Below are positions 48,154-56,566 of a stretch of 64,000 nt of DNA, one piece after another; within the stretch, counting starts at the first letter, position 1; every line of letters begins with the position of its first letter. A model generated the notes under the pieces. The model did no database searches and had not been told where the DNA came from. It saw nothing but the letters and a program-made list of their open reading frames with translations. The stretch covers positions 650,898 through 714,897 of the forward strand of contig CAWDEC010000006.1 in NCBI GenBank assembly GCA_963801255.1, read 5' to 3'. Position numbers and translations under genes: made by a program. This stretch comes from an uncultured Verrucomicrobiae bacterium (lineage in GTDB: Bacteria > Verrucomicrobiota > Verrucomicrobiia > Chthoniobacterales > UBA10450).

Positions 48154-50328
48154 ATGAAACCGCGACCGTTCGAAAGCGGTTTGGCGGCGTGCAGGCGAGG
48201 CGCGTCGATCGGGGGATGCACGCTCGCGTTTTTCTCTCTCCTCGTCGCGGGCTGCAAACCCAAGCCTGCACCCGAGGACGAAGCCAAACTCGCCGGTCTC
48301 ACGCCTAACGACTTTCCGCAGACCACGGCTGACATTTTCAAGCCGCTCGACGGTGGGATCGCGCTCGAGCCTAACGAAATTATGGGCCGCAACACCTGGA
48401 ACCTCTGGAGTGGCGGCAACCAGCATTTCTGGAATCACGTCGCCCAGGACAGCTTTGGCCTCATGGACCTGCTCAAGATGCTGGACAACCGCAAATACCC
48501 GCGTGGCGACCGCTTCAAGACTCTCGGTCTGGTGAACGAGCCCGGTTTCCGCGCCGCGACCAAGCCGGACGAATACGGTCTCTGGCTCGATGAGCAGGTT
48601 GAACCGGAGCCAGCCGGGATTGACGACAAAATCTATGGGAAACCTTCCGGCATTCTCGGGTTCCGTCTCTTCCCCAATCCGGAGTTCGACGATGCAGCGC
48701 GCCAAAAGTGGGATGGCGCGCGCTTCATGAACGACCCGCATTATTACAGCAACAATAAACTCGTTAGGCCATATCGCGTCGGGGTTGCCTGCGGGGCCTG
48801 TCACATCTCGCCCAATCCTTCCAAGCCCCCGGACGACCCGGAAAATCCGCGCTGGGAAAATCTTGCCTCCGCCATCGGCAACCAATACATCCGGGAAGGA
48901 AAAGTCTTCGCGGCGAACGTGGAAAAAGGCGGCTTCTTCTACGAAGAACTGGCCGCGCAACCGCCCGGCACGTCGGACACCTCACGCATCGCGACCGATC
49001 ACATCAACAACCCCAATGCGATCAACGCCATCTTCCTCCTGGCCGAACGCGAAAAGATGGCCCGGAACGAAAAGATGGCCGGCGGCACCCTCGCTTTGCC
49101 GGGCGAGAAAGAGGAAATGGCGGTGCCACATATTTTGAAAGATGGCGCCGACTCGATCGGCGTCGCGGGCGCGACCATCCGCGTTTACGTCAACATCGGG
49201 ATGTTCTCCGAGTATTGGCTCACGCGCCACAACCGTCTCATCGGCCTTACCGCGCAGGAACCGTTCGAGATTCCTTTTGCACAAGAGCATTCTGTCTTCT
49301 GGCGGGCGACGGAACAGCGAGTCGCCAATATCGCGGCTTTCTTCCGGCGACTCCAACCCTATCATCTCGCCGACGCACCGGGCGGCGCGGCCTATCTTTC
49401 GACCGACGAATCGCTCATGAATCACGGCAAGCTCATCTTTGCCAACAGTTGCGCCCATTGCCACTCGAGCAAACAACCTCCCCCCGGGATCGATCCCGAG
49501 TCTGGTGACGGGAAAGCCTGGTTTCGCGCCGCCGTCATGAAGCCGGATTTCCTTGAGAACAATTTTCTCTCCAGCGACCAGCGTTATCCGCTTTCGAGAA
49601 TCCGGACTAACTCCGCCCGCGCCTTGGGAACGAACGCCATGTCCGGTCACGTCTGGGATAACTTTTCCTCGACTAACTATAAGGAACTGCCGCTCCCCGA
49701 AGACCTCGAGTTTTACAATCCGTGGGACGAGACACAGCCGATCAAGTTCCAGCCGAAAGCGAAAAAGACCGGGCCCGGCTGGTATCGCGTGCCTTCACTC
49801 GTTAGTCTTTGGAGCTCGGCACCCTTCCTGCATAACAACGCGCTCGGTAAGTTTACCGGCGATCCTTCGGTCGCAGGCCGCTTGGAAGCATTTAACGACG
49901 CCGTCGAAAAACTCCTCTGGCCGGAAAAGCGTCTCGGCAAAGCGTCGATCTGGCGGACCCAGAATGAATGTTACCTCCACCTGAGAAAGGAATTCGTCCC
50001 CGAAGTGCTGCAGTCCTTTGCCGACACGGACGGCTATGTAAAACTCGGGCCGATTCCAAAAGGCACGCCCATTAACCTGCTCGCCAACACCGAGCCCGAT
50101 TTCGATCAATTGGCCGCGCTCAACATCAGTTTGGGCAAAGCTCTGCTCGCCATTCATGCCCGTAACCTTTCGCCGGAGGAAGCGCGCAAGGAACTGATCA
50201 AGTCCGTCCCCGAGTTACTGGCGGCGAACAAGTGTCCCGATTTCATCGAAGACGAAGGCCATTACTTCGGGACCGATCTGCCCGACGAAGACAAGCGCGC
50301 CTTGATCGAATACCTGAAGACTTTTTAA
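48154..50328 (+). CDS. di-haem c-type cytochrome, CCP/MauG-like (paralog 1), lipoprotein-type signal
   Basis: 724-aa ORF with the LLVAGC lipobox and two CxxCH motifs (CGACH, CAHCH). The C-terminal ...DKRALIEYLKTF tail is shared with the two downstream paralogs. Confidence 0.7.
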   Translation: MKPRPFESGLAACRRGASIGGCTLAFFSLLVAGCKPKPAPEDEAKLAGLTPNDFPQTTADIFKPLDGGIALEPNEIMGRNTWNLWSGGNQHFWNHVAQDSFGLMDLLKMLDNRKYPRGDRFKTLGLVNEPGFRAATKPDEYGLWLDEQVEPEPAGIDDKIYGKPSGILGFRLFPNPEFDDAARQKWDGARFMNDPHYYSNNKLVRPYRVGVACGACHISPNPSKPPDDPENPRWENLASAIGNQYIREGKVFAANVEKGGFFYEELAAQPPGTSDTSRIATDHINNPNAINAIFLLAEREKMARNEKMAGGTLALPGEKEEMAVPHILKDGADSIGVAGATIRVYVNIGMFSEYWLTRHNRLIGLTAQEPFEIPFAQEHSVFWRATEQRVANIAAFFRRLQPYHLADAPGGAAYLSTDESLMNHGKLIFANSCAHCHSSKQPPPGIDPESGDGKAWFRAAVMKPDFLENNFLSSDQRYPLSRIRTNSARALGTNAMSGHVWDNFSSTNYKELPLPEDLEFYNPWDETQPIKFQPKAKKTGPGWYRVPSLVSLWSSAPFLHNNALGKFTGDPSVAGRLEAFNDAVEKLLWPEKRLGKASIWRTQNECYLHLRKEFVPEVLQSFADTDGYVKLGPIPKGTPINLLANTEPDFDQLAALNISLGKALLAIHARNLSPEEARKELIKSVPELLAANKCPDFIEDEGHYFGTDLPDEDKRALIEYLKTF

Positions 50329-50357: not shown

Positions 50358-50795
50358 ATGACCGCTGCTGAAATGTTAAAGATGTCGCAGGCTGATCTGG
50401 ACACACTGTTTACCGAAAGTCCCGCGGGAGAAATTCCCAAAGGCGAAGGTAAAGGCACGGCGATCGTCGCTCCGGGCACGACCTACACGCAGAACATTGC
50501 GAGTTTTGTCAATCACTTCGCCTGGCAGGGGAAAGTCTTCGATCCGGAGAAAGGAGTCTTGCGCAACAAGATCACGACTTTTGGCCTGAATGCCATCATC
50601 GCCAAAGTCTACAAAGGCGAAAGCTGGCTCGACGGCAAGGAGTGCATCGTCCTCGATTACTCGGACACCTCACTCCTCGCCCATTGGGTCCGTGACGAAA
50701 TCCGTGAGGTCGCGCCGCACACTTATCTCGGCAAAGTTTACTGGAGCAAAAAGCGCCTGATCGATTTCGCACTCGAGTTTCCTGCTTCTGCCTAA
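50358..50795 (+). CDS. hypothetical protein (145 aa)
   Basis: ATG preceded by AAGGAAAG. Sequence MTAAEMLKMSQADLDTLFTESPAGEIPKGEGKGTAIVAPG... It is tightly spaced between paralogs 1 and 2. Confidence 0.6.
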   Translation: MTAAEMLKMSQADLDTLFTESPAGEIPKGEGKGTAIVAPGTTYTQNIASFVNHFAWQGKVFDPEKGVLRNKITTFGLNAIIAKVYKGESWLDGKECIVLDYSDTSLLAHWVRDEIREVAPHTYLGKVYWSKKRLIDFALEFPASA

Positions 50796-50810
50796 CGAAT
50801 TGTTGCGGCC

Positions 50811-52223
50811 ATGGCCGATCCCATCCCAACGCCGCCGCCCAAACCGATTGTTTGGTGGTGGCGGATCCTCGTTCTGGTGGTCGTCGGCCTGGTTATTATC
50901 GCCGCCTATAGCCTGCTGGGCCGACTTACCCTGGATAAGCCGGTCGCCTACGCCGATGCGGAAGAGTTTTTCAAATACGGCTCGCTGGGCGGCGAGCGCG
51001 AATCCGGCATCCCCTATTGGATCTGGAAAGTTCTCCCGAAACTATTTCCAGAATATCTGCCGGGAAAACAATACGTCCCGGGCCGCGAATACGCCTCGTT
51101 AGGCTTTATCTACGAACCGGGCAAAGACCTACCCGTGGGCGTTTCGCAACGCAACACCCAAGGGATCAATCGGGTCTTTCTCAACTGCGCCATCTGCCAC
51201 GCCGGCACCGTGCGCGGGAGCGCGCAAAGCCCGCACACAATCTACACCGGGATGCCCTCGAACACGGTCGATCTCGAAGGCTTTCAGCGTTTCATCTTCT
51301 CCTGTGCTTCCGATCCGCGCTTCAACGCCGATCGCATGATGTGCGAAATGCAGGCGCTCGGCGCCCACTACGATCTGCTCAACCGCACCATTATTCGTTA
51401 CTACGCCATTCCGTTCATGCGCGAGCGGCTCCTCATGTTGAAGGACCGTTTCCGTTTCATCGACTGGGAACCGGAACAGGGGCCAGGGCGGACCGACACC
51501 TTTAATCCCGCCAAGACACTCATCAATTATCCACTCGAAAAGATGGAGACGCGCGAGCTGGTCGGCATTTGCGACCTGCCCTCGATCTGGCTGCAAGGCC
51601 CACGGCGCGATCACGACATGCAGCTGCACTGGGACGGTAACCAGCGCAAAATGGAAGAGCGCAATAAGAACGCAGCCTTTGGGACCGGCGCCTTTCCACC
51701 TACGATCGATCTTCAAGGTTTGGCCCGCATCGAAAAGTGGCTGCTCGACCTTACGCCGCCGAAGTATCCTTTCCCGATCAATCAAGCTCTCGTCGCTCAG
51801 GGCGAGAAAATCTACGGCCAATACTGTGGCGATTGTCACGGGCGAAATGGTCGTGACTTTAGCGGACGCTGGGTCGGAGGCGTGACTCCGGTCGAGCACG
51901 TCGGCACTGATCGGCATCGCCTCGATTCATTCACGCCCGAGCTCGCTTCCACTCTCAGCACCATCTATACCGGTTATCCTTGGCGCTTCACGCATTTCCG
52001 CAAGACTTTCGGTTACGCTAACTCGCCCCTCGACGGCATCTGGTTGCGCGCCCCCTATCTCCACAACGGCTCCGTGCCGACCTTGCGCGATTTGCTGAAG
52101 CCAGGCGCGCAACGGCCGCAGGTTTTCTATCGCGGCTACGACGTTTACGATCAGCAAAATGTCGGTTTCGTCTCGCAGGCCGAACGTTTCAGTCCGGATG
52201 GTCGCAGTCTCGATGACGCCTAA
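50811..52223 (+). CDS. di-haem c-type cytochrome, CCP/MauG-like (paralog 2); C-terminal ~55 aa continue in another frame (to 52392)
   Basis: 470-aa ORF with an N-terminal TM anchor, CAICH and CGDCH motifs and APYLHNGSVPTLRDLL. The expected tail (...YFRFDT...GTSLSPEDKDALLEYLKTF) is encoded in the +1 frame by ORF 52159..52392. This indicates an apparent frameshift or pseudogene. Confidence 0.7.
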   Translation: MADPIPTPPPKPIVWWWRILVLVVVGLVIIAAYSLLGRLTLDKPVAYADAEEFFKYGSLGGERESGIPYWIWKVLPKLFPEYLPGKQYVPGREYASLGFIYEPGKDLPVGVSQRNTQGINRVFLNCAICHAGTVRGSAQSPHTIYTGMPSNTVDLEGFQRFIFSCASDPRFNADRMMCEMQALGAHYDLLNRTIIRYYAIPFMRERLLMLKDRFRFIDWEPEQGPGRTDTFNPAKTLINYPLEKMETRELVGICDLPSIWLQGPRRDHDMQLHWDGNQRKMEERNKNAAFGTGAFPPTIDLQGLARIEKWLLDLTPPKYPFPINQALVAQGEKIYGQYCGDCHGRNGRDFSGRWVGGVTPVEHVGTDRHRLDSFTPELASTLSTIYTGYPWRFTHFRKTFGYANSPLDGIWLRAPYLHNGSVPTLRDLLKPGAQRPQVFYRGYDVYDQQNVGFVSQAERFSPDGRSLDDA

Positions 52224-52461
52224 CGATCAAAGGACTTATTTCCGTTTCGATACACGAGTAAACCAGGCGGGCCGAACGCCGCGGGAACGCAACGAAGGCA
52301 ACTCTAATGCCGGCCACGAAGGCGATGCCTACGGCACTTCGCTGTCACCGGAAGATAAGGACGCGCTTCTCGAATACCTCAAGACTTTCTGATGAAACTC
52401 TCGCCGAAGACAAAGCGTATTCTCTGGGTCGCAGCTGTCCTTTTCGTGCTCCTTCTCATCT

Positions 52462-53922
52462 TTGGCGGCCTTTTCACCTGGGACAAATTCTTTCCGCCAG
52501 GAAAAGCAGGTCTTCGCCAACGAAGCGGAACAATTCAAATACGGTTCGTTAGGCGCGGAAGGCGATCGGGGCGTCCCGTATTATCTTTGGCTGGTTCTTC
52601 CGAGAGTTTTTCCCGATCTCATGCCCGGGCCGGGCGGCTATAAATCGTTCGGCGTCGTCTGGGAAGAAGGCGCTGAGATTCCGGTTGGCTTTTCCAAGAA
52701 AAGGGTTGGCTTCGACCGCATCACGAACAATTGCGCCATCTGTCACACCGCTACCTGGCGGGCGCGCGAAGAGGAAACGCCACATGTCGTGATCGCGGCC
52801 GGGAGCAACGTACGCCTTCAGGAAATGCTGCGCTTCCTTTTCAAGGCAGCGCATGACCCACGCTTCAACGCCGACACCATTATGAGCGAAGTCCGGCTCG
52901 TGAGCGCAAACAACTTCGGCAACGGCGGCCTCTCATTCATCGACCGGCAGATTTATCGCTACCTGCTCATTCCCCTAACGAAAAAAGCACTACTCGAGCA
53001 GGAGAAACAATTTACCTGGATGAATCGGTATGTGAGCGACAACCATCCCAAGCCACCCTGGGGTCCGGGTCGCGACGACGCCATGAACCTGACCAAGTAC
53101 TTCATGACCAGCATGCCGGAGGACAACTCGGTTGGGCCGACGGATTTTCCTTCCATTTGGAATCTCGGTATCCGCAGCGGCAAGGACAAAGCCGGCAAAC
53201 AGATGCTGCTCAACTGGTCGGGCGATACGCCGGCGGTTCGTTCGGTCCTGATTGATTCCGCCCTCGGCCTTGGCGCACCGGCGCGACCATGGTTTCTGCA
53301 AAGGATGGCTGACCTTGATCGCTACCTGAGCAACCTGCCGCCGCCGGCCTGGCCATTCGCCAAAACCAGCCCGATCAATCAGCAACTTGCGGCCGAAGGT
53401 CAGAAAATCTTTGCGCGTGATTGCGCAGCCTGTCACGAGCCGCGCGGCGAATTTACGAACAAGGTGATCCCGATCGGACAGATCGGAACCGATGCCGAAC
53501 GCATGCATACCTGGTCGAAAGCCGCCGCCCAGGAAGCGAATCGCAAAGTGAAAGAGTTAGGCATCGATCGTCCGCCGATGACCGAGCTTGATCCATACGG
53601 CTACATCTCACCTCCGCTCGACGGACTCTGGATGCGCGCGCCTTATCTGCATAACGGTTCCGTCCCCAGTTTGCGCGACCTGCTCAATTTGCCTAACGAA
53701 CGACCACAAACCTTCCATCGCGGCTACGACGTCTACGATCCGGTAAAGGTCGGCTTCCAGGAACCGGCACCGCGTCCTGTAGGCGTGAACGGCGGGATGG
53801 AGCAGCGCTATTTCCTCTACGACACGCAACGCCGCGGCGACGGTAATGGCGGTCATCTCTACGGAACCAGCCTTCAGCCGGAAGAAAAAGATCAACTGCT
53901 GGAGTATCTCAAAACTCTCTAG
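52462..53922 (+). CDS. di-haem c-type cytochrome, CCP/MauG-like (paralog 3); N-terminal TM anchor encoded in another frame from ATG 52392
   Basis: 486-aa ORF with CAICH and CAACH motifs, APYLHNGSVPSLRDLL and the tail EEKDQLLEYLKTL. The membrane anchor MKLSPKTKRILWVAAVLFVLLLIFGGLFTW lies in ORF 52392..52643, one frame off. Confidence 0.7.
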   Translation: MAAFSPGTNSFRQEKQVFANEAEQFKYGSLGAEGDRGVPYYLWLVLPRVFPDLMPGPGGYKSFGVVWEEGAEIPVGFSKKRVGFDRITNNCAICHTATWRAREEETPHVVIAAGSNVRLQEMLRFLFKAAHDPRFNADTIMSEVRLVSANNFGNGGLSFIDRQIYRYLLIPLTKKALLEQEKQFTWMNRYVSDNHPKPPWGPGRDDAMNLTKYFMTSMPEDNSVGPTDFPSIWNLGIRSGKDKAGKQMLLNWSGDTPAVRSVLIDSALGLGAPARPWFLQRMADLDRYLSNLPPPAWPFAKTSPINQQLAAEGQKIFARDCAACHEPRGEFTNKVIPIGQIGTDAERMHTWSKAAAQEANRKVKELGIDRPPMTELDPYGYISPPLDGLWMRAPYLHNGSVPSLRDLLNLPNERPQTFHRGYDVYDPVKVGFQEPAPRPVGVNGGMEQRYFLYDTQRRGDGNGGHLYGTSLQPEEKDQLLEYLKTL

Positions 53923-56491: not shown

Positions 56492-56566
56492 AGGACTTCC
56501 CTTGGCAAGCTCCTGACTTTCCGAAGATCAGCGCTGGCCGGCTACTAAGGAAAAACGCTGATCGAG

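Follow-up and report, generated by a model that had tools for sequence, protein, structure and literature searches.

The frame break in the second of three co-directional cytochrome paralogs of the window, the 64,000-nucleotide stretch of DNA analysed here, is most probably a consensus artefact that arose locally, at polymorphic sites, during assembly of a long-read metagenome, and not a property of the organism. The initial annotation had left three readings of this break side by side: a sequencing or assembly indel, a genuine pseudogene, and a motif-improving insertion fixed in a redundant paralog. The indel is the best supported of the three, as the break is private to this assembly, is absent from three conspecifics and from all relatives, and shows two alleles written in tandem.

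Paralog 2 starts at the ATG at 50811, on the forward strand like the parts of paralogs 2 and 3 described below, and according to the ORF list its body (50811-52223) runs for 470 codons to a premature TAA at 52221-52223, ending in GRSLDDA. It contains an N-terminal membrane anchor, two CxxCH haem sites and a RoxA-like cytochrome c motif, and its body shows 100% identity over 468 amino acids to an intact homologue of 526 residues (P0003). The in-frame TAA that ends the ORF lies within a copy of the 9-mer GCCTAACGA (52218-52226), and all the coordinates initially given for the stop and the motif copy are exact. The displaced C-terminal tail (52219-52392; 57 codons and a TGA) is read in the +1 frame from the CCT at 52219 as PNDQRTYFRFDT...GHEGDAYGTSLSPEDKDALLEYLKTF, with LLEYLKTF at its end and the TGA at 52390-52392, so that the translation agrees with the continuation of the conserved tail to 52392 first described. 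The remaining frame is closed in the tail region. The annotation of the depositor calls the tail as a separate ORF of 64 amino acids (P0010) beside the 470-residue ORF. The remaining paralog of the window, at 48154-50328, is intact. Just upstream of paralog 2, a gene encoding 145 amino acids (50358-50795) shows homology to the N-terminal extension seen in longer homologues, of about 640 amino acids (P0079, P0117, P0130 and P0137). It therefore represents a domain of this protein family that has been split off or fused. The stop codon of this gene (TAA, 50793-50795) also falls within a motif copy (50790-50798), and its register is that of the spurious stop of paralog 2.

Paralog 2 belongs to the RoxA-like di-haem cytochrome c family, with a match to PF21419 above the gathering score (E-value of 4.6e-17, 61.7 bits, cut-off 26.7) and two CxxCH sites; PF13442 and PF00034 were also matched. 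Paralog 3 matched PF21419 (2.3e-16) and PF00034. The features shared with the family (PF21419) are the two CxxCH sites, the motif LDG.WLRAPYLHNGSVP and the C-terminal EYLKTF. In a search of a large protein collection, relatives at E <= 1e-30 numbered more than 7500, and almost all have a length of 525-527 amino acids. An alignment of 18 sequences of the family shows that the haem sites C126/C129/H130 and C339/C342/H343 are invariant and that conservation in the family is highest in the displaced tail (GN.N.GHE...YGT.L...K....EYLKTF): G508, T509, L511, K516, E521, L523, K524 and T525 are invariant in the 18 sequences, and G496, N499, G501, H502, E503 and Y507 nearly so. Because the lost tail holds this most conserved part, a paralog 2 truncated at residue 469 would very probably be non-functional. 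The nearest solved structure is RoxA (PDB: 4B2N), and the similarity is limited to about 50 residues (E = 9.8e-11), therefore the family name says little about function. Compared with RoxA itself, the proteins of the window are membrane-anchored and about 140 residues shorter, and nothing in them indicates rubber cleavage.

Pairwise and multiple alignments place the extra base of paralog 2 at 52217-52218, where the window reads GA-C-G-CCT, the conspecifics GA-G-CCT and other species GA-C-CCT. In the other species of the genus the sequence is GAT GAC CCT AAC GAT (Asp-Asp-Pro-Asn-Asp), with the 8-mer CCTAACGA after the C. In the conspecifics it is GAT GAG CCT AAC GAT (Asp-Glu-Pro-Asn-Asp), in which the full 9-mer GCCTAACGA arises by a C-to-G substitution (Asp to Glu), without insertion and in the harmless register G CCT AAC GA. 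At codon 469, GAC CCT (Asp-Pro) is predicted to be the ancestral form and GAG CCT (Glu-Pro) the derived form that completes the 9-mer. The window shows GAT GAC G CCT AAC GA, which is one insertion away from either allele and holds both allelic bases in series. Deletion of one base 5' of the motif had been proposed to restore the frame, and relatives present exactly such a form, GAC-CCTAACGA or GAC-CC..., with open frames of 526-534 amino acids.

A second private extra base is located at 52490-52491, 272 bp downstream of the first, and separates the membrane anchor of paralog 3 from its body. The anchor piece (52392-52493, in the ORF 52392-52643) begins at the ATG at 52392, which overlaps the TGA of paralog 2, and the body (52494-53922, in the ORF 52462-53922) is a RoxA-like di-haem cytochrome c whose open frame is +1 with respect to its own start. 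In the conspecifics, paralog 3 is a single gene of 509 amino acids from the ATG at 52392. The conspecifics, the sister species G002 and a JGI contig (L035) read AAATT-T-TTCC at this site (AAA TTT TTC CGC), while the other sister species, G004, reads AAATT-C-TTCC (AAA TTC TTC CGC), a synonymous T/C difference. The window reads AAATT-C-T-TTCCGC, with the C and T alleles in tandem, and the extra-base forms at the two breaks are GACGCCTAACGA and AAATTCTTTCC. For a random insertion, the coincidence with tandem alleles would be about 2-3% per site by a rough, post hoc estimate. The second site is the weaker evidence for tandem alleles: the change can be described as a C within a short T run or as the gain of one T by that run, expansion of the run is an alternative, and of the sequences compared only G004, a different species, has the C allele. 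Judged from its sequence context, neither insertion is a typical slippage mutation, as there is no homopolymer at the first site (GA[C]GCC) and at the second a C stands inside a T run.

The two insertions delimit a patch of 274 bp (52217-52490) which, in a seven-way comparison, also contains private substitutions at 52287, 52308 and 52484. This gives five differences found only in this assembly in 274 bp, versus two in the other 6.26 kb compared. The substitutions at 52287 and 52308, in the tail of paralog 2, are both synonymous in the restored frame, and that at 52484 is non-synonymous in the anchor of paralog 3; they are too few to gauge relaxed selection.

The 90%-identity cluster of the 470-residue product has 16 members, nine of which have 526 amino acids. 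The 470-residue form with the 64-residue tail ORF is found only on the genome's own 773-kb contig, and an exact look-up of the 470-residue product gave no match beyond that contig. The cluster representative, P0003, is identical to the product of the window over residues 1-468 and continues with SLDEPNDQRTY.... Its DNA is on a 3.67-Mb ENA contig (ERZ25039457 contig_22585) that matches the window with 99.65% identity over 21.6 kb and differs from it in this length by four indels, at 52217/8, 52490, 56518 and 56549. The indels at 56518 (T3 versus T4) and 56549 (G2 versus G3) are differences of homopolymer length in the convergent spacer between a flavoprotein gene and an M29 peptidase gene.

Three conspecific contigs, this one included, from three different ENA assemblies, are 99.57, 99.71, and 99.08% identical to the window over 6.5 kb. 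All three show both genes intact (526 and 509 amino acids), and over the 6.5 kb their only indels relative to the window are those at 52217 and 52490. The extra base at 52217/8 is absent from G002 and G004, which belong to the same genus and have about 90% genome identity (95% in paralog 2), from G008, of another genus of the same family, and from two JGI metagenome contigs with 96% identity. The extra base at 52490 is absent from G002, G004 and the JGI contig L035, the relatives that cover this site. The comparison with orthologs and other strains that the initial annotation had recommended thus gives both breaks as private, found in no other assembly compared. In JGI metagenome contigs, the private haplotype of the window (52281-52311) had 0 matches, and a scan for any allele of the junction found only two, both intact GAC-CCT, and no frameshifted allele. 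No independent contig, these being from other strains, carries the lesion. Further contigs of the species, such as the Logan contig ERR10755946_390583, were traced through proteins encoded nearby, and none of them spans the patch. G004 has a frameshift of its own in paralog 2 (L003, on G004:C16, corresponding to 52051-52055 of the window), which is a C5-to-C4 homopolymer change; the same product of 482 residues has the accession HEY2713082.1 and also occurs in JGI/IMG and Logan records.

The true paralog 2 would be a normal membrane-anchored RoxA-like di-haem cytochrome c of 526 amino acids. The population, or close relatives, would hold two alleles at codon 469, and the consensus would have written both bases serially, as GAC G CCT. 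The added base would shift the TAA of the motif into frame and end the ORF, and the same event 272 bp downstream, at a synonymous TTC/TTT site, would have broken paralog 3. By the favoured route, reads of two co-occurring haplotypes may have been collapsed into one contig; in a draft with both bases, each base would be backed by about half of the reads, so polishing would retain both. Alternatively, a stretch built from very few reads might show a similar local error patch. The artefact accounts for the privacy of the breaks, the tandem alleles, the odd mutational contexts, the clustering with private substitutions and the undecayed tail.

We infer the platform, coverage, mixture of haplotypes and polishing route of the assembly. 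The conspecific records have Flye-style names (e.g., contig_22585) and contigs of 0.4-3.7 Mb, from which a Nanopore-only Flye/Medaka-type pipeline is plausible for this genome. In Nanopore-only consensus sequences, frameshifting, gene-breaking indels persist below about 40x coverage (PMC9262707), and large soil MAG sets at ENA consist of Nanopore-only Flye assemblies with one Medaka round (PMC12313526). With the long-read indel errors described for such data (PMC9262707; pipeline in PMC12313526), the breaks share a one-base indel that is private to one assembly, intact conspecifics, sister assemblies that are broken elsewhere, and a gene split by the depositor's gene caller into ORFs of 470 and 64 amino acids. 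They differ from them in that the first site is outside a homopolymer, the assembly is clean overall and the alleles stand in tandem instead of varying in run length; the platform in this comparison is the presumed one.

The quality of the assembly was analysed over 158 kb of G002 and 200 kb of G004 that are syntenic with the contig of the window, with frame-changing indel clusters polarised three ways and tested for an ORF-interior location. This replaced a tblastn frame-switch screen of three genomes of the genus, which was noisy as stop-to-stop ORFs caught intergenic indels and antisense ORFs. In the about 123 kb compared, 15 indel clusters are specific to this genome, and only 2 of them fall in the interior of an ORF that the two sister species conserve, and break it; the others are located at ORF edges or in non-coding DNA. 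One-base indels in ORF interiors number about 10 per 123 kb in G002 and about 4 in G004, including the C5-to-C4 change. In G002 (G002:C9:505001-663046, L013-L020), the interior indels mostly duplicate a neighbouring base. These counts suggest that G002 is a lower-quality long-read consensus. As private indels break only two ORFs in about 123 kb, the generic error rate of the assembly is low, which rules out a generically error-riddled assembly, and the two lesions are a local event and not part of a genome-wide error haze. A systematic consensus error specific to the motif was ruled out too, since 1 of about 95 aligned copies is affected.

The 9-mer GCCTAACGA has 54 copies in the window (0.3 expected), which span 531-63652. 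It is the top 9-mer of the 3.92-Mb genome, with 2519 copies (0.64 per kb) and a sharp core of 9 bp, and the next unrelated 9-mer has 501. The motif is enriched in most of the genera of the family sampled (e.g., 1808, 1391, 1312, and 1254 copies), while two genera have no excess of it. Since motif copies make up 0.76% of the window, chance would seldom put a break into one of them, by an estimate made post hoc; the coincidence exists because the variable base (C versus G) is position 1 of the motif. The link between motif and break that had been suggested stands in so far as the G is the motif-completing base, and fails in so far as an insertion was unnecessary for making the motif. Turnover of the motif was studied in 120 copies in 215 kb, of which about 95 could be aligned in each sister species. 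Orthologous copies are identical in 70-79 cases (74-83%, at about 90% genome identity) and differ by substitution in 20-23. No internal indel was found in the aligned copies except that at 52218, and one other copy has an adjacent extra A; the motif therefore turns over by substitution. Gain of further motif copies through indels was not borne out in these 215 kb, as the copy at 52218 is the only one with an internal indel among the approximately 95 aligned per sister species.

A stepwise build-up of the motif is observed at 52212-52226 and the orthologous sites (L004, L002 and L031), by protein-altering substitutions, from CCG GCC AAT in a relative of another genus (GAC CCG GCC AAT) to CCT AAC GAT in species of the genus (GAC CCT AAC GAT, with the 8-mer) and then to GAG CCT AAC GAT, with the 9-mer, in the conspecifics. 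The motif resembles the DUS of Neisseria and the USS of Pasteurellaceae in being a sharply bounded 9-mer that is present in both orientations, mostly intragenic and conserved across related species, and in the appearance of new copies of GCCTAACGA by point substitution, here Asp to Glu. This likeness, which is one of statistics, makes the motif a candidate for such a sequence, and the frame break would be explained without it. A literature search for the 9-mer gave no description of the motif, with incidental primer matches only. To our knowledge, natural competence is not known in Chthoniobacterales.

A real and recent pseudogenisation private to the strain, in which two one-base insertions knock out adjacent RoxA-like cytochrome paralogs, is considered rather unlikely. 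It could represent early decay of a redundant operon, or a single episode of error-prone repair that produced clustered mutations, for which the five private changes in 274 bp would be suitable. Several observations speak for it and count against the artefact: the assembly is otherwise clean, since in about 123 kb private indels disrupt ORFs nowhere else; a pair of lesions in neighbouring genes of the operon, with the paralog at 48154-50328 left intact, also has the look of early real decay; and the independent frameshift in the same gene in G004 and P0005 could be a hint of dispensability. A further point against the artefact is that public metagenome contigs did not contain the second haplotype it presupposes (GAC...A...T...C...TTC). 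However, the lesions are missing from the three conspecific assemblies and every other relative, and a real insertion leaves unexplained that the inserted base is the alternative allele at both sites. Neither insertion is a simple run-slippage event, and there is no further decay: the two private substitutions of the tail are synonymous and all its conserved residues are kept.

Insertion of the G as a motif-improving change, from CCCTAACGA to GCCTAACGA, fixed by a force that spreads the motif (e.g., uptake-biased recombination) and tolerated through paralog redundancy, is very improbable. The G does turn an ancestral one-off variant into the full 9-mer, the hyper-abundant motif shows good conservation between species, and comEC is present in the genome. 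Nevertheless, the conspecifics gained the same 9-mer at the same site by the frame-preserving substitution of GAC to GAG, and the other copies, about 95 per sister species with 20-23 substitution differences, lack internal indels. Moreover, there is no motif copy at the second break, which is located at a distance of 272 bp from the first and of 56 bp from the nearest copy. It shows the same tandem-allele pattern, so one cause unrelated to the motif explains both. There is equally little reason to expect that the extra G is real and was fixed by a motif-multiplying force despite truncation of the cytochrome, after which the neighbouring redundant paralog began to decay; if true, the case would show directly how a selfish sequence motif can spread to the detriment of a gene. 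Recoding, by programmed +1 ribosomal frameshifting or otherwise, through which full-length proteins would still be made from both genes, is the most improbable reading, hardly to be entertained. Both breaks do require a +1 shift, and the second is at UUU C, where tRNA-Phe could re-pair, but the shift is not conserved, as all orthologues, including those of strains with 99.7% identity, are in one frame, and at the first site (GCC UAA C) the tRNA-Ala in the P site is predicted to be unable to re-pair in +1. At the level of sequence, the motif-driven and programmed-frameshift readings are both contradicted by the conspecifics.

With the consensus artefact as the preferred reading, paralogs 2 and 3 are almost certainly two intact cytochromes in the organism, of 526 and 509 amino acids. 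The finding bears on data quality, as the genome that represents the species annotates ORFs of 470 and 64 amino acids and a paralog 3 devoid of its anchor, and it concerns a type of error, a polymorphic site written as two bases, that is missed by homopolymer-aware checks. Furthermore, the stepwise, protein-changing assembly of the motif at codon 469 bears on how the motif spreads.
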